Below, piece after piece: positions 3,907-64,000 of a DNA stretch of 64,000 nt. The position numbers were made by a program, and so were the translations under genes. The stretch lies in the sequence record PZ496581.1. One strand, given 5' to 3'. Position 1 is the stretch's first letter. Each line of letters begins with the position of its first letter. The stretch comes from a phage. A model generated the notes under the pieces. The model did no database searches. It saw only the letters and a program-made list of their open reading frames with translations, and was not told where the DNA came from.

Positions 3907-4203
3907 TTACATAAGAAGCAAACGTTCTACCGGAGTACCATCAACCGAAATTACTTTATCAAGGCGGAAAGAACGCCACTGACCTAACTTGGTATCGAAT
4001 GCTCGAACTGATTCACGAGGTTCAGAACGAACTTCTGTTGCCGGATTGTTATTTTCATATTTGACTTCAAGTTCATCACGAGAAGCAAACATCGTACGAA
4101 CATCACCGTTAGCCTTTTCAAACACAACACAATGAACGCCTACAGACAGAATAGTTTTAATACGTTCACGAAGAACCATAGTTTCTTGTTCAGTTAAAAT
4201 CAT
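3907..4203 (-). CDS. Hypothetical protein (~98 aa)
   Basis: Track ORF 3907..4215; internal ATG chosen to limit overlap with the cd stop. Confidence 0.4.
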   Translation of the reverse strand: MILTEQETMVLRERIKTILSVGVHCVVFEKANGDVRTMFASRDELEVKYENNNPATEVRSEPRESVRAFDTKLGQWRSFRLDKVISVDGTPVERLLLM

Positions 4204-4204
4204 A

Positions 4205-4786
4205 TTATTCACCACAAAAGTTTCGAATTTGTTCCCAATTCAGAGAACGAAGATTATTACGAGAGTACTGAATTACTTCAATACCGGCTTGTTTTAGAAT
4301 GTCTGCCCAATTTTCAGGAGATCGGTCATATAATTCTGCATATACAACCTTTTTAATACCTGACTGTGTAATAGCTTTAGTGCAATCAGGGCACGGAGAA
4401 AGCGTAGTATATAACGTAGCACCTTCAATAGAATTACCTTTACGAGCTGCAAACAAAATTGCATTCAATTCAGCATGGATTTCGTTATTAGCAGACCATG
4501 CACTATGAGCGGCCCGATGTTCTTTAGCCAAAACAAAATTATCCACCCGTCCAAATGCTGTAGTGCCTTCTTTATGCCCAGCAACGATGTCCGGGCTTGG
4601 TTTATTCTTCAACCAACCGTTTTCGGATGCATGTTCGCAACAGTTTGTACCACCGGCCGGGCTACCGTTATACCCAGTAGAAATAATGCGCCCATCTTTT
4701 TCAATGACGGCACCAACTTTCCATGAACAACATTTTGATTCTTGAGAAATCAGATATGCAATCTGAAGGTATGTGCTAGCTTTCAT
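4205..4786 (-). CDS. cd: dCMP deaminase (193 aa)
   Basis: Zinc-dependent deaminase motifs HAELNAI and PCPDC; same length as T4 Cd. Confidence 0.85.
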   Translation of the reverse strand: MKASTYLQIAYLISQESKCCSWKVGAVIEKDGRIISTGYNGSPAGGTNCCEHASENGWLKNKPSPDIVAGHKEGTTAFGRVDNFVLAKEHRAAHSAWSANNEIHAELNAILFAARKGNSIEGATLYTTLSPCPDCTKAITQSGIKKVVYAELYDRSPENWADILKQAGIEVIQYSRNNLRSLNWEQIRNFCGE

Positions 4787-5778
4787 TATTGAACCTTATT
4801 AATATGAGTTAACAGCTCTTTAGTTTGTTCCCAACTGATGCACGCATCGGTAACGGAAACGCCATAGGACATATTATCAGAAATTTTTTGATTTCCTTCA
4901 TGTAGGAATGATTCTATCATAATTCCTTTGACCAAATCATTAGCTGCTAAATTTTTACCAATACCAATTTGATTGCTATAATGCCCATCAGCGTTTGCAT
5001 GGCTACAGTCAACCATTACATAATGATTCAGACCTACTGCCCTTGCTTTGTTAGAAGCTTCTTGAATATCAGAAGAATGATAGTTCGGGCCGTTGGTCCC
5101 GCCACGCAATACGATATGCGTATTCTGATTACCTTCAGCTTCAACAATGCCTACAGTACCATCGACGTCCATACCCATATACCGATGAGGCCAGGCGGCA
5201 CTATACATCGCGTCTGTAGCTACTTTAATAGAACCATTGGTTGCGTTCTTGAAGCCTACGCACATCGGTAGACCTGAAGCAATTTCACGATGTGTCTGAC
5301 TTTCAGTCGTACGGGCGCCAATAGCAACCCATGAGAAAATACCAGAAAGATACTTAATCGTGAATGGGTCTAATACTTCAGTTGCTAATGGAAGTCCCAT
5401 ACGTAGAAGTTTACGACACAATGTTCGTGCAACTATAAGACCGTGGTTCATATCAAAACTTCCGTCAAGATATGGATCATTTACAAGACCTTTCCAACCT
5501 ACGGTAGTTCGAGGCTTTTCAAAATAAACGCGCATCACTAACAGAACATTAGGAAGACGAGTTTGAAGTTCAGCCAAACGTTTGCCGTATTCAACAGCAG
5601 CAATAGGGTCATGAATTGAACAAGGACCTACAACAATAAGTTTGCGTGGGTCTTCACCGTTCATAATCGAATTAACTTGTTCGCGATGAGAAGCCACTTG
5701 TGATGCGTAAGCTTCCGACAAAGGAATAATCTCAGCCAGTTCTTTTGGAGAAATAAGTTTTCCGACGACAGGTAACAT
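4786..5778 (-). CDS. 3-deoxy-D-arabino-heptulosonate-7-phosphate (DAHP) synthase, class I AroG/F/H-like (330 aa)
   Basis: Conserved blocks LIVVGPCSIHDP, RVYFEKPRTTVGWKGL, GARTTESQTHRE, CVGFKN, LRGG..PNY, SHAN, ESFLHEGNQ match E. coli AroG from memory. Confidence 0.85.
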   Translation of the reverse strand: MLPVVGKLISPKELAEIIPLSEAYASQVASHREQVNSIMNGEDPRKLIVVGPCSIHDPIAAVEYGKRLAELQTRLPNVLLVMRVYFEKPRTTVGWKGLVNDPYLDGSFDMNHGLIVARTLCRKLLRMGLPLATEVLDPFTIKYLSGIFSWVAIGARTTESQTHREIASGLPMCVGFKNATNGSIKVATDAMYSAAWPHRYMGMDVDGTVGIVEAEGNQNTHIVLRGGTNGPNYHSSDIQEASNKARAVGLNHYVMVDCSHANADGHYSNQIGIGKNLAANDLVKGIMIESFLHEGNQKISDNMSYGVSVTDACISWEQTKELLTHINKVQ

Positions 5779-5898
5779 AACAATCCTTAGGAGATATAAA
5801 CAGATTCTGATTCAACAATACCTTTAACCGGATTAGACAGGCTAAGTTGGTAGTGCTCAGATTTATGACCATTCTCGATAGTAATTAGATAGCTCTCA

Positions 5899-6135
5899 TT
5901 ATAGTGTTCCATATACTCGAGTTGCTTCAACTAAACCGTCACTGCCTAATTTAAGGCTAGTAATCTGGTCACCATCTTTAGGATTAACGATTATGAGAAA
6001 AGAACGTGGAGATTCTTGAATAACTCGTAATGTTGCATCCTGGAAACGTTCAGACACTTTATTGATGAGTGCTTGAGCAAATTCTTTTACTTTAATCTGA
6101 AATTCGTGTACTGTAATTGGGTTTTCACTTAGCAT
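5899..6135 (-). CDS. Hypothetical protein (78 aa)
   Basis: Track ORF with its own early-type promoter upstream. Confidence 0.45.
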   Translation of the reverse strand: MLSENPITVHEFQIKVKEFAQALINKVSERFQDATLRVIQESPRSFLIIVNPKDGDQITSLKLGSDGLVEATRVYGTL

Positions 6136-6164
6136 TTCGATTTCCTCATTGTGTTGGTAGAGTC

Positions 6165-6194
6165 ATAGTATCACAACTCTACCATGTTGTAAAC
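6165..6194 (-). promoter_or_regulatory. T4-type early promoter (-35 GTTTAC, 18 nt, -10 TACTAT) inside an inverted repeat
   Basis: -10 lies in the loop of ggtagagt/actctacc (6156..6183). Confidence 0.4.
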
Positions 6195-6196
6195 CA

Positions 6197-6472
6197 TTAA
6201 ATTGCTTTGCATTCAATTTTTTGTGTACCGAAATTGATATCACATTGGATAACTAAATCGCCGTCAAGATCAAATACCACGATGACGTGTGCAGACCCAG
6301 GGAGAAGAGTAATAGCAATAGAATCTACTTGGTCTGGGAGCAAAGCATTGAGTACATGAGTTACTTGAGCATGAACTCTGAGTTCGGCTGCATTATCAAG
6401 CACTTCAAACATATTATTAGCAATAATCTGACTGAAGACTACCTTTACAATTTCAGAATAAGTTGGGAACAT
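6197..6472 (-). CDS. Hypothetical protein (~91 aa; start at MFPTYSEIV)
   Basis: Track ORF 6197..6532 trimmed to an internal ATG to avoid overlap with 6480..6704. Confidence 0.4.
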   Translation of the reverse strand: MFPTYSEIVKVVFSQIIANNMFEVLDNAAELRVHAQVTHVLNALLPDQVDSIAITLLPGSAHVIVVFDLDGDLVIQCDINFGTQKIECKAI

Positions 6473-6479
6473 AATTACC

Positions 6480-6704
6480 TCAGTGTACAGTGTGCACTTT
6501 AACTCGAACAACAAATCGCTCGGTTGGTTCACCTACAGGAACAAACTCTACATGATATTCACCTTTGTAACGAGTATTCAGATCATTACGAATTCCTGCG
6601 AGTTTGTTGATTAATGTAGGACTCATATTAAGTCCCACTAGTTTACGAAGCATTTTGTATGCTTCATCTTCGATTTCATGATGTTTATCATACATAGTTT
6701 TCAT
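6480..6704 (-). CDS. Hypothetical protein (74 aa)
   Basis: Track ORF, minus strand. Confidence 0.45.
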   Translation of the reverse strand: MKTMYDKHHEIEDEAYKMLRKLVGLNMSPTLINKLAGIRNDLNTRYKGEYHVEFVPVGEPTERFVVRVKVHTVH

Positions 6705-6875
6705 TTAACCATTCAATTGCTTGGTCAACACTATCGAAAATAGCACCATCCAAACGTTCTTCATGCTCATAGTCCAGCACATCAATACCGAACTGTCCAT
6801 TTACTAAAGGCCAGGCTACAAACAAATATTCTTTATGCTGTTCGATGGCCTCAATCACTTCATATAATCGTTTCA

Positions 6876-6876
<1 letters not shown>
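6688..6876 (-). CDS. Hypothetical protein (62 aa)
   Basis: Track ORF; start overlaps the pseT stop. Confidence 0.45.
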
Positions 6877-7962
<1,086 letters not shown>

Positions 7963-7963
<1 letters not shown>

Positions 7964-8262
7964 TATTTTATTCCTAAGAAAGTTTCAAGAATACGAATGT
8001 TATGCTCGCGCCGGTCTTTATTAATTTCAGCAACGTTTTTATTAATTGACGTACTTCTAACGTTTGAAGAAATAAATTTAATCATATGACTTTTGAGTTG
8101 TTGCAAATCCAACCCTTTTTCTTTAGCAGCTTTACGAAGAGCTTTACCTGCTTCATCTAGTGCCTTTGCTGCATCTTTGTCATAATCTACAAGTGTCATT
8201 CCACGGCAGATATCAATATACTCATCAGACCGTTTGATGTAATTCTCTAGTAATGTTTTCAT
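7963..8262 (-). CDS. Hypothetical protein (99 aa)
   Basis: Track ORF with promoter module upstream. Confidence 0.45.
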
Positions 8263-8290: not shown

Positions 8291-8320
8291 ATTATACTCT
8301 GCTCCCGAGAGTTTGTAAAC
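8291..8320 (-). promoter_or_regulatory. T4-type early promoter (-35 GTTTAC, 18 nt, -10 TATAAT) inside inverted repeat ggagca/tgctcc
   Basis: Read on minus strand, ~30 nt upstream of the ATG at 8262. Confidence 0.4.
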
Positions 8321-15488: not shown

Positions 15489-16504
15489 CATTATGTTCAG
15501 ATAAGGTCGTTAATCTTATCCCGGAATTATATCCAGCTGCATGTCACCATGCAGAGCAGACTATATCTCCAACTTGTTAAAGCAAGTTGTCTATCGTTTC
15601 GAGTCACTTGACCCTACTCCCTAAAGGGATAGTCGTTAGGCATTTATGTAGAACCAATTCCACTTATCAGATTTTACACGGTAAGTAACTAATCCTGATG
15701 AAATTTCAAAATGTCTAGCCGCATCGGCTGCACATTCAAAAATAATCCCATCGCATGAAATCTTTTTGATGTTAGCTGGCTTTTTGCCTTTCATCTTTTC
15801 AGATAGTTTAGTTTTAGTTTTTTCTGAATGTTTGTGATTAAAGAACGGGTTATTTTCACCTGAACGTTTTCGGCACTTTCCACAAGTATCGGCCGAAGAT
15901 GGTATGCGAACACCGCATTTACAAAACTTGTGGTTTTCTGGATTCCATCGGCCATTTTTACTTCCGTGTTTACCATAAAGAGCTTTCCGACCATCAGGAC
16001 CAAGCTTAAGCATCTTAGCTTTAACAGTTTCAGCTCGTTTCTTAGCAATTTCTTCTTTTAATGGATGATTTGAAAGCACATCGCCAAAAGACGCATCAGC
16101 AATATTATATCCATTAATTTTAGAATTTAGCTCTTTAATCCAAAAATTTTCTCGTTCAATAATCAAATCTTTCTCATATGGAATTTCTTCCAGTACAGAG
16201 CATTCAAAAACATTACCATGTTTATTAAAAGACCTTTGAAATTTTATAGAAGAGTGAACACCGTTTTCAAGGTCTTTAAAATGTCTCTTCCATCTTTTCT
16301 CAAAATCTTTAGCACTTCCAACATACACTTTACCGTTTAAAGTGTTTTTAATCTGATAAATTCCGCTTTTCATAAACACCTCTTTTTATATAGAAGTATT
16401 TATTAAAGGGTAGTCCTACAATTTAGCACGGGATTGTCTACTAGAGAGGTCCCCCGTTTAGATAGATTACAAGTATAAGTCACCTTATACCTAGGCCTAA
16501 ATTA
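15489..16504 (-). mobile_element. Group I self-splicing intron in td (1016 nt) carrying a homing-endonuclease ORF
   Basis: Intron 5' end UAAUUUAGGCCUAGGUAUAAGGUGACUUAUACUUGUAAUCUAUCUAAACGGGG closely matches the remembered T4 td intron; exon 1 ends GGU; length matches T4. Confidence 0.8.
15636..16373 (-). CDS. GIY-YIG homing endonuclease I-TevI (245 aa)
   Basis: MKSGIYQIKNTLNGKVYVGSAKDFEKRWKRH... plus C-terminal zinc finger CKCG...CGKC; near-identical to remembered I-TevI. Confidence 0.9.
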   Translation of the reverse strand: MKSGIYQIKNTLNGKVYVGSAKDFEKRWKRHFKDLENGVHSSIKFQRSFNKHGNVFECSVLEEIPYEKDLIIERENFWIKELNSKINGYNIADASFGDVLSNHPLKEEIAKKRAETVKAKMLKLGPDGRKALYGKHGSKNGRWNPENHKFCKCGVRIPSSADTCGKCRKRSGENNPFFNHKHSEKTKTKLSEKMKGKKPANIKKISCDGIIFECAADAARHFEISSGLVTYRVKSDKWNWFYINA

Positions 16505-17878
<1,374 letters not shown>

Positions 17879-40162: not shown

Positions 40163-42378
40163 TTATTTGGCCGCTTCCACGGCCTTCATGAATTTAACGA
40201 TTTGAGCGACCTGTTCTTTGGAAAGAGTACCACGTCGTCCCATGTATTCTGACACAATATGATAATTGGTTTCGAATTCAATAACCATTTTATCATCATT
40301 ATCGTAAGCATTATCTTTAAGCTTATCGAAAATTTTAGCGCACAATTCTAACTTCCTGTTCAGGTCTCTGTTATCAGCACCTGCGAATCGATTCCATCCC
40401 CAGCGATTATTTACTGTTGAGAGTTTTGCAAAGTCTTTACTGATTTCTTTGTTCTTAGAGCTAAAATACTTACTAAGGAAGTTAAGCTCTTCGTTACGAG
40501 TAATATGATTCAAATAAGGCTGTGCTCTACGACTTGGTGATACATACTCATCATAATCCACTTTATCAATTAGCGTAATATAGTCGTTAATTGATTTTTC
40601 GAACAAGCATTCTACTTCACCAAGTTTACGAACTTTCTTAGCAATCTGTGGACGGACTACAGTGAACTCTTTAATACCTGACAAATCAGCAATACGGGTC
40701 AAGAAATTGGAGTCATAGTTCAACCAACCTTTATCTGCGTCAAGACATTCAGCATTAGAACGATTACGAACTATAGCATAACCTTGGATTTCATCAGCTT
40801 CACTCGCTGGAATAAAGAGATCTTCCGATACCCAAACATCGTTTTCGTTCTTGAAGAAACGATGGGCACTCGGTGATTTAGGGCGAGGCCCATTAGAACG
40901 AGTCTTGACTTCAATCCATGGCTTAACGATTTGTAAAAGCTCTGAAGTCTTGTACATGTTAATGTTGTCGCCATCAAAGATAACTTTAAGGCGTTCCAGA
41001 AGTTTCATTGCATCTTCGTCTGTAGGGTCAACGAATAGTACGCTTTTACCAAAACCGCGTGGAACTTTACCGGTTAATTTAACCTCGTCTTTAGACATTT
41101 CAATTGAATTAAGAGCTCGCATTAATGGAACGCGTCCCTTAACGTCGTCAATAACAATTTCAACGTTTTTAATGTTAATGCCAATCAGGCTATTAATTGA
41201 AATGGTTGTTGATGAGCTACCACTTTCACGAATACGACGAAGACGAGGGGATTCAACGATATCGTATACGACGCCAAGATTACACCACTCAGGCCCCATT
41301 TTAAAACGTTTGTACAACTCGGAATAAGTTAGTTGTTCTTTAGAGTATTTCAGTGATTCAATATTAGACCCGGCCTTTTCCATGTATTTACGAGCGGTAT
41401 AGCCAAGAGAATCAATTTCACGGAACACATGACGTGGGTATTTACAATCAATCCATTTCTTAGAATCTTCAGCGAACAATTTAGCATCGATTTCTGCAAC
41501 ACGTTTATGGATATTTGCTACTGTACGTTTATCAAATGACAATGCTTCACGAGACGGGGCTACATCTAGTTCACCCATAGGGAATTTAATATAAGCTGTA
41601 GTGCATCGCGTCATCATCCATGTTTGTTCTTTAATAACACTTCCGATTGGATATACAATACCACCATAAACAGCCATGATATTACCACGTTCACCCCATG
41701 GAGCTTCCTTGGCCAAATATACATCGTCAAATTCAGGAAAGTATTTAATATCTTTAACACCACGAACTTCTGCAATATCACCTAGAGGACGCATAACATA
41801 TGCAATTTCAGATGCGAACTTTTCAAAATCTTCTGGGTTAACCGGTACAACTACTTCTACACCCGTACGGTCATCGGGGCCCATCTTATCTACAAAGGTT
41901 GGCTTAATTTGTGGACCTGTGTCATCTTGGTAGATTACGTAACCACGAACTTCACCGTTGTGATAAGACGTAAGGTTAAACGTATCGGTATATGCTAGTG
42001 GAGCTTTAGAGCCGAGTCCGAATCCACCAATGAAATCGTTACTCGATGTTTTAGTTGAAGCAAAATATGAGTTATAGATTCCTGGCTCTTCGTCATTACC
42101 TCGAATGGTGAAATCACTCATACCAGGACCAAAGTCTCGAACTACAAAACGCGGGTCTAAACGACCTGGAGCCTGAACAATAAACTTATCAGTGCAACCA
42201 TTAAGAATTTGTCCATCGATACAGTTTGTGATTAATTCACGTACACAAGCCAATTCTTTGTTTGTATAAAGGTCTCATTAGACAAAATCTTATAAACTTT
42301 GCTATTGCCTTGAATAGTGAATGCTGTGCTCTTACCGCCTGAACCAATAATTGTTTCTTTAGCCGTTTCAATAATCAT
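40163..42378 (-). pseudogene. rIIA: rIIA with broken reading frame: 48-codon N-terminal ORF (42232..42378) plus 696-codon remainder (40163..42253) in another frame
   Basis: N-terminus MIIETAKETIIGSGGKS...KILSN then frame break at gaga (plus tctc 42273..42276); the downstream frame reads DLYTNKELACVRELITN...DFGPGMSDF...GGFGLGSK (GHKL-like). Confidence 0.6.
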
Positions 42379-42683: not shown

Positions 42684-43784
42684 TTACGCTGTGAAGATTT
42701 TATCCCACATCGCAACAACTGCATCTCGGTTATACTTCTTCCATACTGCTTCAGCACGTTTAACTCGAGCTTCGTATGTGTCAGTGAATTCTAATACAGC
42801 TTTTGTGTAAAGCGCAACTACTTCTTTCTTAGGAGTAGAGGAATCAATTTCTACACGCACAGTATCTGGGTCATATTCGAATGTCGCGTGCGGATAATCC
42901 TTAAAAACTAACTGGATTACAGGGACACCTTTAGAGATGGCTTCAATAGAACTATTCTCTACCGTACCTGTGTCAGGACATGTATTAATAAGTGCTTTAG
43001 CTGTTTTAAGACGTTCCATGATTTCACTGTGTGGAGCATCAATAATAACAGGATATTTAGCTGGTGGTGCCCATTTGCTTGGACAATAACCAATACCATT
43101 TTCGCCTAGTGCTTTAATTGCTTCAAGAGCAACATCAGTGCGACGCATTTTAGTGTCATAACGTTGAGCACTAATAATCAAATCAGTTGCTGGGAGAACT
43201 TCTGGCTTTTCAGTCAAACAAATAACCGGATAATCTTCGGCTTCAAACAACGGATTTGCTCGCCAATAATCATAATCAATTTTGTCAGTCAGACCTGAAG
43301 TCATATAACAATATTTGCGTTCAAATTCACGGAAGGCTTTAGTAGGAGCATAACTCTTACCACCATTCTTATGAATTTGAATAGTCTGGTCCCAAATTTG
43401 AACAATGCCACGAGATACCGGTTCAAATGGTGTTGCCATAAAATTCTTATGAACTTTAGAGAGACCTGCGTCTTTAATTGCCTGAACGGTTAGTTTAGTC
43501 GGTTCCATAGTAACAACAAAATCGTATTCATGGATGCCGGCTAGTTCAACAATCTTACGAGCCATAGTATAACTCATACCTAGACTGAATTTAGTCAGAT
43601 GACCAACAGGATGGTGTGTAACTTTCCAGTCACCAAACGTGTCATTATCAAAGCCGATATAATCAATATCAGCACCGATGGACACAAGATATTTCAACAC
43701 ATTTAAATGTACTGCTTCAAGACCACCTTGTACACGGTCAGGATTAAATGGGACTGCACGAGATGGGATAAACATAACTTTCAT
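42684..43784 (-). CDS. Putative GT-B-fold glycosyltransferase (366 aa)
   Basis: N-terminus MKVMFIPSRAVPFNPDRVQGGLEAVHLNVLKYL and C-terminal E..A.....PVI block typical of GT-B retaining glycosyltransferases; between 39 and rIIA.1, where T4 has none. Confidence 0.55.
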   Translation of the reverse strand: MKVMFIPSRAVPFNPDRVQGGLEAVHLNVLKYLVSIGADIDYIGFDNDTFGDWKVTHHPVGHLTKFSLGMSYTMARKIVELAGIHEYDFVVTMEPTKLTVQAIKDAGLSKVHKNFMATPFEPVSRGIVQIWDQTIQIHKNGGKSYAPTKAFREFERKYCYMTSGLTDKIDYDYWRANPLFEAEDYPVICLTEKPEVLPATDLIISAQRYDTKMRRTDVALEAIKALGENGIGYCPSKWAPPAKYPVIIDAPHSEIMERLKTAKALINTCPDTGTVENSSIEAISKGVPVIQLVFKDYPHATFEYDPDTVRVEIDSSTPKKEVVALYTKAVLEFTDTYEARVKRAEAVWKKYNRDAVVAMWDKIFTA

Positions 43785-43811: not shown

Positions 43812-43827
43812 AGCTCCCGAAGGAGCT
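43812..43827 (-). terminator. UUCG-tetraloop hairpin at the 3' end of gene 39
   Basis: agctcc-cgaa-ggagct. Confidence 0.35.
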
Positions 43828-45644
43828 TAGGACATCCATTCTTTACGAAGTTCTGAATCATCACCCATCAACATTTCAAAGAGTTCTTTCCAATTTTCAG
43901 GAAGTTTAACTACGTCGTACACAGGGTTCTGAATCATTTCACGATATTCTGACTTTTCAAGGGAGCCTAATCCCTTGATGTATCGAATACTATGCTTAGG
44001 CAGTGTATCTTTAACTTCTTCATACTCAGCTACAGTATAAAACCATTTTTGAGTTTTGCCAATTTGTGCAATAATTACAGGCGTTTTAACAAAGCGAATA
44101 CGTCCTTGTTCAAACAATTCAGGCCAATTACTAAAGAAAGCAAGCAAAGCCGGATAGATACTTCCAAGACCGTCGTGATCTGCATCAGTCATAATTGCAA
44201 TATTACGATAGTTCGTATTCTCTGCCTTTTCACCAAGAATAAGACCTGTGATAGCACAGATATCAAAGAGCTCTTTGTTCTTCATCATATCAGCATATGA
44301 CATACCCCAGCTATTCATCACCTTACCACGTAATGGGAATCCGCCGTGTAGTTCACGGTCACGAACATCAATGAGATAACCAATTGCCGAATCACCTTCT
44401 GTTAAAAACAATGTCGTATCTGCATCTTTACCACATTGGTTAGCTTTAATATGCTTATGAACCTTAGCTTTAGTCGCCTTTTTAGCTGCTTTAGTTTCTG
44501 CAGCCTTTTCTGCTGCCAATTTACGAGCTAATGCTGCTTCAACAATAGGCATAATCAAGGCTTCGTTTTTAAGAAGTGCCTGAGCAATTTTCTTAGCATC
44601 TAATTGGATATGATTACGAATATCACCATACGTTGACGTTAAACGTTCTTTAGTCTGAGAATCAAAACGCATGTTGCTCATGTCTCTAATAAACATCAAC
44701 ATTGTGAGGCATTCTTTAACACGAGCTTTAGTGACTTCAATACCCTTATATTTCTTTTTAATACCCGGCAAAAGATGTTCACAGATATCATCCATTACAC
44801 ATTCAACATGATGGCCACCATTTTTAGTATGGATGTTATTCACATAAGTTAAATGACGGAAGCCATCTGGTGATGTTGTGAATGCTATAGAGACTTTATC
44901 ATTTTCTTGAATGATGTTATCTTCACCGAATTGTTTAGCAAATCGTTTAAAATTACCATCAACCTTTTTACCATTAAATGTGAACTTGATATCAGGATAA
45001 ACGACTGCCAATGTTTGAAGTCGGTCTAAAGTAATATCTAAATAAATTTGAGATAAATTATGCTCTTCAAATGAAGTGAAATCAGGAGTGAAGATTACTT
45101 TAGTGCCTTTACCTTTAGATTTCTTAGAAGACCATGATTTGTTTTCCATTCCGTTTGAACAGTTAACAGTGATTTCATTTTCGCCATCTGATGTGATGCC
45201 TGTAAACAACGTAGAGAAGATATTAGTTAAACTACTCCCGACGCCGTTCATACCACCAGTCTTGCGTTCAGAGTCATCACCAAAGTTACCACCAGCCTTT
45301 GGAATAGTCCAGGCTGCTACAGGCCCAGGAATTTGTTCACCCGTTTGGTCGGTAACTAAACCTTGAGGAATACCACGTCCGTTATCTTCCACCGAAACTT
45401 GATTATTTTTAATTTGCACATCAATTTTATTTGCAAACTTAAATGATGTACGAATAGCTTCATCAACCGAGTTGTCAATAATCTCATCGATTAATTTAAC
45501 CAGGCCAGGAACATATTCAACTTGTTGATATTTACCAAACAAAAAACGCTCATGTGCTTCTTTAGCCGAAGAACCAATATACATACCACTACGTTTCTTA
45601 ATATGTTCTACATCTGACAATACCTTAATTTCATTTTTAATCAT
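43827..45644 (-). CDS. 39: gp39 DNA topoisomerase II large subunit (GyrB-like ATPase plus TOPRIM), uninterrupted 605 aa
   Basis: GHKL N-terminus with SGMYIG; TOPRIM LFLTEGDSA; one ORF covers both the T4 gene 39 and gene 60 equivalents. Confidence 0.9.
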   Translation of the reverse strand: MIKNEIKVLSDVEHIKKRSGMYIGSSAKEAHERFLFGKYQQVEYVPGLVKLIDEIIDNSVDEAIRTSFKFANKIDVQIKNNQVSVEDNGRGIPQGLVTDQTGEQIPGPVAAWTIPKAGGNFGDDSERKTGGMNGVGSSLTNIFSTLFTGITSDGENEITVNCSNGMENKSWSSKKSKGKGTKVIFTPDFTSFEEHNLSQIYLDITLDRLQTLAVVYPDIKFTFNGKKVDGNFKRFAKQFGEDNIIQENDKVSIAFTTSPDGFRHLTYVNNIHTKNGGHHVECVMDDICEHLLPGIKKKYKGIEVTKARVKECLTMLMFIRDMSNMRFDSQTKERLTSTYGDIRNHIQLDAKKIAQALLKNEALIMPIVEAALARKLAAEKAAETKAAKKATKAKVHKHIKANQCGKDADTTLFLTEGDSAIGYLIDVRDRELHGGFPLRGKVMNSWGMSYADMMKNKELFDICAITGLILGEKAENTNYRNIAIMTDADHDGLGSIYPALLAFFSNWPELFEQGRIRFVKTPVIIAQIGKTQKWFYTVAEYEEVKDTLPKHSIRYIKGLGSLEKSEYREMIQNPVYDVVKLPENWKELFEMLMGDDSELRKEWMS

Positions 45645-63682: not shown

Positions 63683-64000
63683 TTAACGAGCCCATTTGAT
63701 GATTTCTGTAATCAAATCATTACGTTCGCTTGCATTAAATCCTATAACTTTGTTAGCACCATCATGATTAAGTAATTGATACGTTTGGATTTTGTTATGA
63801 ATTGCAAACTCTTCAAAATGTGAAATGACTGTATTAAAACCGAATGAAGACAAAGTAATAAGGTCGTCTTCAAAACTTTCAGTCATTTCGTTACGTGTTA
63901 AAATAATTGTGAACACATCATGGTTTTGGCAAAGACGAACATAATCCTGTTCATAAACGTCAAGAACCGAGTCCGCATCTTGTCGAATACGTCCATAAAC
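63683..64000 (-). CDS. Partial CDS (C-terminal part; 5' end beyond the window), hypothetical
   Basis: The frame of track ORF 63683..63916 stays open upstream to position 64000 with no stop; the GTG at 63916 is probably internal. Confidence 0.4.
   Translation of the reverse strand, partial: VYGRIRQDADSVLDVYEQDYVRLCQNHDVFTIILTRNEMTESFEDDLITLSSFGFNTVISHFEEFAIHNKIQTYQLLNHDGANKVIGFNASERNDLITEIIKWAR

Follow-up and report, generated by a model that had tools for sequence, protein, structure and literature searches.

A phage-encoded DAHP synthase with a remodelled inhibitor site, and its possible tie to oxygen-independent cytosine hydroxylation in Mosigvirus

The subject of this report is a gene for 3-deoxy-D-arabino-heptulosonic acid 7-phosphate (DAHP) synthase, which catalyses the entry step of the shikimate pathway to the aromatics, found in a 64,000-nucleotide stretch of phage DNA (record PZ496581.1; this whole stretch is called the window below). 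The gene occupies 4786..5778 on the minus strand and comprises 330 codons, with the ATG at 5778-5776 and the TAA at 4788-4786, as the initial annotation of this open reading frame (ORF) had it. A Shine-Dalgarno-like AAGGA, read from the sequence, stands at 5784..5788 (minus strand), 5 nt before the ATG at 5778. The source phage is a Mosigvirus, a member of the RB69-like branch of T4-like coliphages; a 4-kb stretch of it is 99% identical to phage a20, and in 140 phage records at least 80% of this 4-kb stretch is covered. Taken alone, a DAHP synthase gene is an ordinary find, being a well-annotated auxiliary metabolic gene. What our analysis suggests as new is a natural remodelling of the feedback site of this enzyme, and a tie between the enzyme and a system of U32 protein, chorismate mutase and 5-hydroxycytosine.

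The DAHP synthase gene is packed into the pseT-cd transcription unit. Directly downstream lies cd, encoding dCMP deaminase (4205..4786, minus strand), and the two genes meet in a TAATG junction (4784..4788, minus strand). Here the TAA of DAHP synthase (4788-4786) shares a nucleotide with the ATG of cd (4786-4784), from which translational coupling is deduced. This overlap had initially been described in reverse, with the start of the DAHP synthase gene overlapping the cd stop; it is the DAHP synthase gene that lies upstream, and the conclusion drawn at the time, that the gene is an integrated part of the early operon, holds for the corrected order. A comparable stop/start overlap is also found in one uncultured phage contig (L028). 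On the upstream side, small ORFs of 47, 78 (DUF7320), 111 (DUF7355), 74 and 62 aa (5787..6876, minus strand), the counterpart of the cd.2-cd.4 region of RB69, separate the gene from pseT, encoding polynucleotide kinase/phosphatase (6876..7775, minus strand). The latter marks the upstream edge of a conserved pseT-(small ORFs)-DAHP synthase-cd arrangement. Farther along from pseT follow alc, rnlA, nrdB, nrdA, td exon 1, frd and gene 32, and the setting among nucleotide-metabolism genes that was claimed for the gene (cd, pseT, nrdB, nrdA, td exon 1 and frd) is thus correct.

The 330-aa protein matches the Pfam family PF00793 with 252 bits (cut-off 25.5; E 5e-75), and the NCBIfam families TIGR00034 (aroFGH) and NF009395 with 428.7 bits (cut-off 173) and 455.9 bits (cut-off 343), respectively. 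The AroG- and AroH-specific NCBIfam cut-offs are not reached, and the phage protein is therefore neither of those isozymes. Its identity to E. coli AroF, AroG and AroH is 51%, 47% and 44%, and it matches the crystal structure of E. coli AroF (6agm) with E 3e-105. The five conserved blocks that had been read from the sequence (GPCSIHDP, KPRTTVGWKG, GARTTESQ, VGFKN and LRGGTNGPNY) are all present. Profile search and alignment to AroF, AroG and AroH thus agree with the original assignment to class I DAHP synthases, and the sequence places the protein within type I-alpha (AroF-like).

The state of the active site was judged from an alignment of the phage protein with AroF, AroG, AroH and 119 database homologues, in which 25 sequences of the phage clade were compared with 98 cellular sequences. 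As reference we used 14 positions that we take to be the ligands of AroG for the metal (Cys61, His268, Glu302 and Asp326) and for phosphoenolpyruvate (PEP) and erythrose-4-phosphate (E4P; Arg92, Lys97, the KPRT motif, Gly163-Ala164-Arg165, Lys186 and Arg234). All 14 residues, including the metal and PEP ligands on which the initial annotation had made its assignment depend, are present in the phage protein and invariant across the 25 phage-clade and 98 cellular sequences. The metal ligands are C53, H260, E289 and D311, unchanged in 25/25 phage-clade sequences, and the PEP and E4P residues are R83, K88-P89-R90-T91, G154-A155-R156, K177 and R225. An AlphaFold model of the protein (predicted local distance difference test, pLDDT, 92.5; predicted template modelling score, pTM, 0.91) superimposes in Foldseek on AroG and Neisseria DAH7PS (1gg1, 4hso, 1kfl) with template modelling (TM) scores of 0.95-0.96 and root-mean-square deviations of 1.3-1.6 Å. 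The model forms a (beta/alpha)8 barrel that keeps the beta6a/6b insertion (strands 198-203 and 209-214). With the catalytic set and the predicted fold both intact, the phage protein is very probably an active DAHP synthase.

The part of the protein that departs from its cellular relatives is the inhibitor site. The initial annotation held that only a short N-terminal extension is missing, and predicted from this a loss of feedback inhibition by Phe, Tyr and Trp. The truncation, which amounts to 8-9 residues against AroF, AroG and AroH, is indeed a property of the whole phage clade, which begins 8-11 residues later than the cellular enzymes, at the position of AroG residue 9-11, such that none of the 25 sequences has counterparts of AroG D6/D7 (AroF N7/N8). 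In the AroG-Phe structure, the N-terminal segment of the neighbouring subunit completes the inhibitor site, and AroF is also desensitised by the N-terminal changes N8K and deletion of I11. The truncation is not the only difference, however: compared with AroF, AroG and AroH there are short deletions near the C-terminus (two, relative to AroF) and a shorter C-terminal tail, and the inhibitor pocket carries fixed substitutions. At the positions of AroG P150, Q151, D155, S180 and F209, the window protein has I141, K142, G146, P171 and Y200. The residues I, K, G and P are found at the first four positions in 24-25 of the 25 phage-clade sequences, while P150/Q151/D155/S180-type residues are kept in 91-98 of the 98 cellular ones; at the F209 position, where Phe is kept among the cellular sequences within that same range, all phage copies have Tyr. 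In AroG, inhibition by Phe is abolished by P150L and by S180F; in AroG/AroF, the inhibitor main chain is bound by Q151/Q152 and S180/S181, and D155/D156 forms a stabilising salt bridge (PMC9529685). Since the N-terminus is absent and known resistance positions are replaced across the clade, a loss of feedback control is likely, and the phage enzyme is probably insensitive to Phe, Tyr and Trp. The early prediction is thus more firmly backed than by the truncation on its own, four resistance positions being replaced as well in nearly all phage copies.

The closest point of reference is the Tyr-sensitive AroF of E. coli (6agm/6agl), to which the phage enzyme is similar over the whole length, with identical metal, PEP and E4P residues, a common fold and a Gly at the Tyr/Phe selectivity position (G212 in AroF). 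Unlike AroF, the virus-encoded enzyme lacks the first 9 residues and has I, K, G and P in place of P151, Q152, D156 and S181. The altered pocket positions (P150, Q151, S180 and D155) are ones that laboratory studies had singled out (PMC9529685) in work on engineered or selected feedback-resistant enzymes, such as AroG P150L, S180F and D146N or AroF P148L and related variants. In contrast to these, the phage version, known here from its sequence, is a natural combination of several changes with an N-terminal truncation that is fixed clade-wide. A natural, multiply substituted and probably feedback-insensitive DAHP synthase may possibly be of use in metabolic engineering. A different reading of the same substitutions, compatible with any role of the enzyme, is that the site was re-tuned to another effector, for example prephenate or a modified nucleotide. 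This would fit the near-invariance of I141, K142, G146, P171 and Y200 in the phage clade, where no drift is seen, and the retention of the beta6a/6b regulatory insertion in the model. We consider it improbable, since the N-terminal segment that completes the inhibitor site in AroG is absent from all members and there is no known candidate ligand.

Phage copies of the gene have been noticed before. The protein matches PHROG 5045, 'phospho-2-dehydro-3-deoxyheptonate aldolase', with E 5e-182; a tblastn search finds DAHP synthase in 213 of 50,697 phage records, most of them annotated as aroF or DAHP synthase, so that the gene is on record in about 190 phage genomes; and for Klebsiella phage KLB31 the enzyme was put forward as an amino-acid-related auxiliary gene (PMC11845039). 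The bare finding of the gene is therefore not new, but in the literature searched, the PHROG and GenBank aroF entries and the published reports contain neither an analysis of regulation nor a link to the DNA-modification cluster. Matches in coliphages are either at least 95% identical to the window copy or 68% identical (phage EcS1), and the protein of phage GADS24 is 100% identical. Annotated copies are known in Mosigvirus, Marfavirus, Kanagawavirus, Winklervirus and Bragavirus. A survey of the cd-pseT junction, as had been advised, finds the orthologue likewise between pseT and cd in Marfavirus, Kanagawavirus and Bragavirus, as well as in two T4-like contigs from uncultured phages; in all, no fewer than six genera plus uncultured phage contigs have the gene at this locus. 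In the uncultured phage contigs checked, it was never found adjoining a U32 gene, and always lay between pseT and cd. Among the 50,697 records, no Tequatrovirus (T4-type) phage gave a match, in agreement with the earlier statement that T4 has no such gene. The phage DAHP synthases form a single clade (neighbour-joining bootstrap 100/100) that is about equally distant from enterobacterial AroF and from homologues of unrelated bacteria, which points to an old acquisition and not to a recent capture from the host.

Some matches stand apart from this clade. Aeromonas phage HJ05 (L018, 79 kb), a non-T4-like phage, encodes a distant, longer DAHP synthase of 387 aa with 38% identity (6257-7420). Its neighbours code for a methyltransferase, a ParB-like protein and a PP-loop/asparagine-synthase-like enzyme, and the locus may represent another kind of modification cluster, with a DAHP synthase acquired independently. 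As a case that might inform on the partners of the gene, HJ05 was set aside, since a distant DAHP synthase without U32 is uninformative. AGRM01000002.1 in the phage collection is a 691-kb Salmonella enterica contig with a bacterial aroF-type match, and contigs named 'Acinetobacter phage MD-2021a' bear cellular-looking aroF copies, so that counts of phage DAHP synthases need filtering. In one uncultured T4-like contig that bears the gene (L029, 1-4915), nrdA is split into three parts and is interrupted by inserted ORFs and an intein-splicing domain.

The gene is missing from RB69, the type phage of its own genus. By blastn, window positions 4102-4789 and 5890-7646 abut in RB69, the intervening segment of 1.1 kb (4790..5889, minus strand), with the DAHP synthase gene and a short upstream stretch, being precisely absent. 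At its edges lie two copies of an imperfect direct repeat, one in the cd start region (4775..4790, minus strand; AATAATGAAAGCTAGC) and the other at 5888..5902 (minus strand; TATAATGAGAGCTATC). They share the TAATGA(A/G)AGCTA of the cd start region, of which RB69 has one hybrid copy (L013, about 8243-8255). The single hybrid repeat and the missing 1.1 kb indicate that RB69 probably lost the gene by deletion. No remnants of DAHP synthase were found in RB69, in Yersinia phage TG1 or in the cluster regions of JS98 and Thanatos. Such a clean presence/absence pattern with short direct repeats at its edges would be expected if the gene were a passenger of little present use in Mosigvirus, kept by linkage in a variable region; the cd-pseT interval is known to vary among T4-like genomes, and of the differences among the three Mosigvirus copies, 7 are non-synonymous and 2 synonymous. 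Against this stand the occupation of the same locus in the several genera and uncultured contigs, a ratio of non-synonymous to synonymous substitution rates (dN/dS) of 0.12-0.24 between phage genera, the retention of every catalytic residue in the 25 cluster representatives, and the good ribosome-binding site and translational coupling to cd, which together make a mere passenger very improbable.

To place the enzyme in the biology of these phages, their DNA has to be considered. RB69 and other Mosigviruses have DNA with arabinosylated 5-hydroxycytosine, not hydroxymethylcytosine (PMC13326640; PMC13390438). The Mosigvirus homologue of thymidylate synthase (TS) is a flavin-dependent 5-hydroxy-dCMP synthase that takes the oxygen atom from O2 (PMC13326640), and the published arabinosylation pathway begins at ribulose-5-phosphate. 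Of the cytosine-modification cluster, the window reaches the first gene, a thymidylate-kinase-like gene (RB69 gp45 homologue) of which the truncated 3' part lies at 63683..64000 (minus strand). In phage a20, the cluster comprises the kinase and a glycosyltransferase as well as the TS homologue, a 79-aa ORF and a 'peptidase'; also part of it are a phosphatase and two sugar-pathway enzymes, a bifunctional arabinose kinase/uridylyltransferase and an arabinose-5-phosphate isomerase.

The 'peptidase', a homologue of RB69 gp50 whose gene would lie about 2.1 kb past the end of the window as judged from a20 (L004:6491-7651), belongs to the Peptidase_U32 family (PF01136, 42.2 bits; cut-off 22.4) and also matches UbiU weakly in NCBIfam. 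An hhalign comparison with E. coli TrhP, RlhA, UbiU and UbiV gives a probability of 92% (E 6.5e-7) and pairs E185, C203 and C209 of the phage protein with E162, C170 and C177 of TrhP, and C233 with C193; a plain MAFFT alignment instead sets C192 opposite TrhP C170. The Glu and the two Cys are essential to TrhP and also to RlhA (PMC6599085). A fold match of the U32 protein to 5d88 is published (PMC13326640 Table 1), and the latest pathway paper gives gp50 as a 'sugar or heterocycle reductase' and mentions neither U32 nor prephenate nor chorismate. The U32 protein is conserved to an unusual degree, being 81-89% identical between genera, compared with only 42-77% for DAHP synthase, the arabinose kinase/uridylyltransferase or the isomerase. 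Six genera share all 13 of its Cys residues without change, among them those of a CX4CX3CX2C cluster at the C-terminus, which is absent from the E. coli U32 proteins.

Cellular U32 proteins of this kind depend on the shikimate pathway. RlhA makes 5-hydroxycytidine in 23S rRNA and needs the aro genes, chorismate mutase activity (that is, prephenate) and Fe-S assembly (PMC5727448), while TrhP makes 5-hydroxyuridine in tRNA in a prephenate-dependent, anaerobic manner alongside the O2-dependent TrhO (PMC6599085). The phage protein is of the same family as these two and may, going by the profile alignment, have the Glu/Cys/Cys set too, and its proposed product would likewise be a 5-hydroxy-pyrimidine. 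For RlhA, the dependence on aro genes and chorismate mutase is documented and is served by the host shikimate pathway (PMC5727448). The phage protein differs in being a remote member of the family, as its Pfam score of 42 bits reflects, with supply enzymes that are virus-encoded; it would act on DNA or a deoxynucleotide, and would have to carry out millions of hydroxylations in each infected cell.

A second shikimate-pathway enzyme stands right beside the U32 gene in most U32-positive genera. In Kanagawa-, Winkler- and Bragaviruses and in most Marfaviruses, U32 directly adjoins a chorismate mutase of the CM_2 family (38-45 bits in Pfam, against a cut-off of 27), a small AroQ-type enzyme next to the TS homologue; tblastn puts it beside U32 in Tegunavirus and Pectobacterium phage PM2 too, and the pairing persists in the rearranged cluster of Shewanella phage Thanatos. 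The PHROGs labels do not reveal this pair, the mutase family being of 'unknown function' and U32 a 'peptidase'. In E. coli, two steps on the way to prephenate are under feedback control, that of DAHP synthase and that of the chorismate mutase domains in PheA and TyrA. Both feedback-controlled steps between central metabolism and prephenate are thus encoded by phages. The window and the rest of a20 yielded no chorismate mutase to a hidden Markov model (HMM) built from five phage mutases (best E 0.36), which gives E values of 1e-37 to 1e-58 in the other genera. A 79-aa ORF of Mosigvirus (a20_155, L004:6255-6494, PHROG 8601) occupies the exact position of the 79-aa chorismate mutase of other genera. 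It was considered as a mutase and rejected, having no Pfam match and an hhalign probability of 0.1%. Marfavirus EI (L008) has lost the mutase between U32 and the TS homologue by a deletion relative to PWKp16 (L027:3670-3915), in which the mutase and the start of the TS homologue overlap as annotated. Among Klebsiella phage records, tblastn finds the mutase in 18 and U32 in 26.

The distribution of these genes over the phage records ties DAHP synthase to U32. The U32 homologue is found in 222 records, in every one at least 80% identical to the a20 protein, and the host-name profiles of the U32 and DAHP synthase sets are nearly alike. Co-occurrence was determined by a single tblastn search with a chimera of DAHP synthase and U32, which returned 243 records and 436 places; set against 213 records for DAHP synthase and 222 for U32, this means that 192 carry both, leaving 21 with DAHP synthase only and 30 with U32 only. 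Of the 21, 17 hold distant homologues with less than 60% identity (faecal contigs, the MD-2021a contigs, the Salmonella contig and HJ05) and 4 hold close copies, of which two or more come from sub-genomic contigs. Thus, 192 of the 196 records with a phage-type DAHP synthase also have U32. The sugar genes are far more widely spread, with 374 records for the bifunctional arabinose kinase/uridylyltransferase and 276 that have an arabinose-5-phosphate isomerase, each including 57 Acinetobacter phages. In these Acinetobacter phages, whose host is strictly aerobic, the sugar genes are present, and DAHP synthase, U32 and chorismate mutase are all absent; no Acinetobacter phage record has U32 or the phage-type DAHP synthase. 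Likewise, in Dhakavirus JS98 the cluster contains the sugar genes along with the TS homologue and is without U32 or chorismate mutase, and the record counts imply that it also lacks DAHP synthase. DAHP synthase is therefore nested in U32-positive phages and not in arabinosylating phages generally.

This pattern led us to reject a direct link of DAHP synthase to the arabinose pathway, the more so as Marfaviruses have DAHP synthase without the isomerase. An indirect link can be imagined, in which the drain on erythrose-4-phosphate pulls transketolase towards pentose phosphates and so provides more ribulose-5-phosphate for arabinose. Ribulose-5-phosphate is indeed the start of the published pathway, and an arabinose-activating gene is present in every DAHP synthase-positive genome examined. 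The 57 Acinetobacter phages and the Dhakaviruses nevertheless have sugar genes and no DAHP synthase, DAHP synthase follows U32 far more tightly than it follows the sugar genes, and the mechanism is roundabout and wastes PEP, so that we regard carbon routing as highly unlikely.

The initial annotation offered two other purposes for the enzyme. One was folate: with more chorismate, p-aminobenzoate and hence folate would be in better supply for dCMP hydroxymethylase, td and frd. Chorismate is the precursor of folate, and td and frd lie near in the same early region. Since the TS homologue is a flavin- and O2-dependent 5-hydroxy-dCMP synthase, however, there is in Mosigvirus no folate-drawing dCMP hydroxymethylase and no hydroxymethylcytosine, and it is the hydroxymethylcytosine-making Tequatroviruses, with the larger folate demand, that are without the gene. 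A recycled cofactor is needed in small amounts only, and the phage chorismate mutase would draw chorismate off the folate branch. We therefore give the folate explanation very little credence. The other purpose, also proposed for KLB31 (PMC11845039) and the standard reading of the enzyme, is that of a generic auxiliary gene: a deregulated DAHP synthase would keep aromatic amino acids and other chorismate products flowing for phage protein synthesis after host shut-off. An intact active site and an altered regulatory site fit this equally well, as does the dispensability of the gene in some relatives. It leaves unexplained why the gene is restricted to U32 phages (192/196) and absent from many other T4-like phages of the same hosts, and why sister genera place a monofunctional mutase beside U32 and the 5-hydroxy-dCMP synthase gene and not beside amino-acid functions. 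General supply of aromatic amino acids is thus rather unlikely in our view, though it is the strongest of the competing explanations.

We propose instead, as an idea with about an even chance of being right, that the selective role of the phage DAHP synthase is to supply prephenate for U32-dependent hydroxylation. According to this model, DAHP synthase would be made early or in mid-infection from the pseT-cd operon and would force PEP and erythrose-4-phosphate into the host shikimate pathway despite plentiful Phe, Tyr and Trp. Host enzymes would then carry the flux to chorismate and a host or phage mutase would convert it to prephenate, which would be the aim, and not amino acids or folate. 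In the absence of O2, this prephenate would serve the U32 protein in hydroxylating a deoxycytidine substrate at C5. The outcome would be 5-hydroxy-deoxycytidine made independently of O2 and then arabinosylated in Mosigvirus DNA, along a route parallel to the flavin/O2-dependent 5-hydroxy-dCMP synthase. In this chain of steps, the sequence comparisons show what the enzyme is, that its active site is intact and its regulatory site altered, how it is nested among U32-positive phages and which genes surround it; we infer the actual loss of inhibition, the substrate and chemistry of the U32 protein and the link between DAHP synthase and U32. In broader terms, and somewhat more tentatively, a dispersed three-gene module of feedback-blind DAHP synthase, monofunctional chorismate mutase and U32 hydroxylase could form an O2-independent route to 5-hydroxy-deoxycytidine in T4-like phages of facultative anaerobes.

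The scale of the modification is in keeping with this proposal. A genome of about 169 kb with 37.7% G+C has about 64,000 cytosines, which at an assumed burst of 100-200 means that each cell would have to perform 6-13 million hydroxylations, a number that is sizeable against the Phe and Tyr made per E. coli cell generation. It gives rough support to a need for extra flux, and in the aromatic-replete gut little activity would be left to the DAHP synthases of the host. An anaerobic ribonucleotide reductase is also encoded by the phage, which indicates that anaerobic replication is part of its biology. E. coli itself pairs O2-dependent with O2-independent, U32-type enzymes for the same product, namely TrhO with TrhP and UbiI,H,F with UbiU,V. 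The phage pair would resemble these, except that it would be viral and its O2-dependent partner is a flavin-binding thymidylate-synthase homologue.

Several observations weigh against the prephenate model. U32 occurs without DAHP synthase in RB69, JK42, phiE142, Yersinia Tegunaviruses and Pectobacterium phage PM2, and the DAHP synthase gene is thus dispensable. As far as homology searches can tell, Mosigvirus has no chorismate mutase of its own. As DAHP synthase was acquired once, few independent events of gain or loss lie behind the 192 of 196, and its nesting in U32-positive phages may be largely a matter of inheritance. The Dhakaviruses, which grow on E. coli with the TS homologue and without U32, indicate that an anaerobic route is not obligatory. 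Within Mosigvirus, the 7:2 differences between copies show no sign of constraint in the sequence at that depth, a comparison of very low power. The pocket substitutions are themselves conserved, and could therefore reflect a new effector instead of an absence of regulation. Moreover, the stoichiometric use of prephenate by U32 enzymes has merely been speculated on (PMC5727448). As to precedence, in the literature searched no paper links phage DAHP synthase, chorismate mutase or prephenate to phage DNA modification, but the search did not cover He et al. or Mahler et al. 2025 on arabinosyl-5-hydroxycytosine, which may already assign gp50.

If prephenate supply is indeed the role of the enzyme, a virus would be redirecting the shikimate pathway so that prephenate becomes available as a stoichiometric reagent in nucleic-acid chemistry, and no U32 hydroxylase before this one would have been known to act on DNA or a DNA precursor. 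Should the link hold, it would give a concrete reason for a shikimate enzyme in a lytic phage, for which 'aromatic amino acids' has hitherto been the guess. It would also bear on a gap in the arabosyl-5-hydroxycytosine pathway, whose sole characterised hydroxylase needs O2 though the phages replicate in the gut, and provide a high-flux system in which to study U32/prephenate hydroxylation chemistry.

The window holds one more gene that may bear on the modified DNA. An ORF of 366 aa at 42684..43784 (minus strand; PHROG 8302, unknown function) is, by its position only, a candidate for the second DNA arabinosyltransferase. It is flanked by large ORFs at 40163-42253 and 43827-45644, which we take to be rIIA and the topoisomerase gene, respectively. 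The literature places the second Mosigvirus DNA arabinosyltransferase at the rIIA-topoisomerase interval (PMC13390438).

Scans for promoters and terminators yielded consensus-level matches only, which do not fix the timing of expression of the pseT-cd unit. The strongest early-type match upstream of the unit is a sigma-70-like TTTACA-17-TATAAT (8291..8319, minus strand; 11/12). A MotA-box-like middle promoter match, TGCTTCA-N12-TACAAT, lies inside pseT, upstream of the DAHP synthase gene (7159..7183, minus strand). Both are matches to a consensus only. Across the window there are 14 matches to the MotA-box pattern TGCTTNA-N11-13-TANNNT, where 3.8 are expected, and most of them lie on the minus strand; the late-promoter motif TATAAATA is not enriched there (5 against 6.9 expected).

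Farther along from pseT, td seems to be split, its ORF at 16502-17053 (minus strand) matching only positions 1-175 of the 266 of the profile. Just downstream of this exon 1, a complete I-TevI-like GIY-YIG homing endonuclease of 247 aa (15636-16379, minus strand) recalls the group I intron of T4 td. The neighbouring frd ORF (17050-17784, minus strand; 244 aa) is listed with a TTG start, and the dihydrofolate reductase (DHFR) profile matches residues 70-203 only; the true start of frd is probably further downstream than this TTG.

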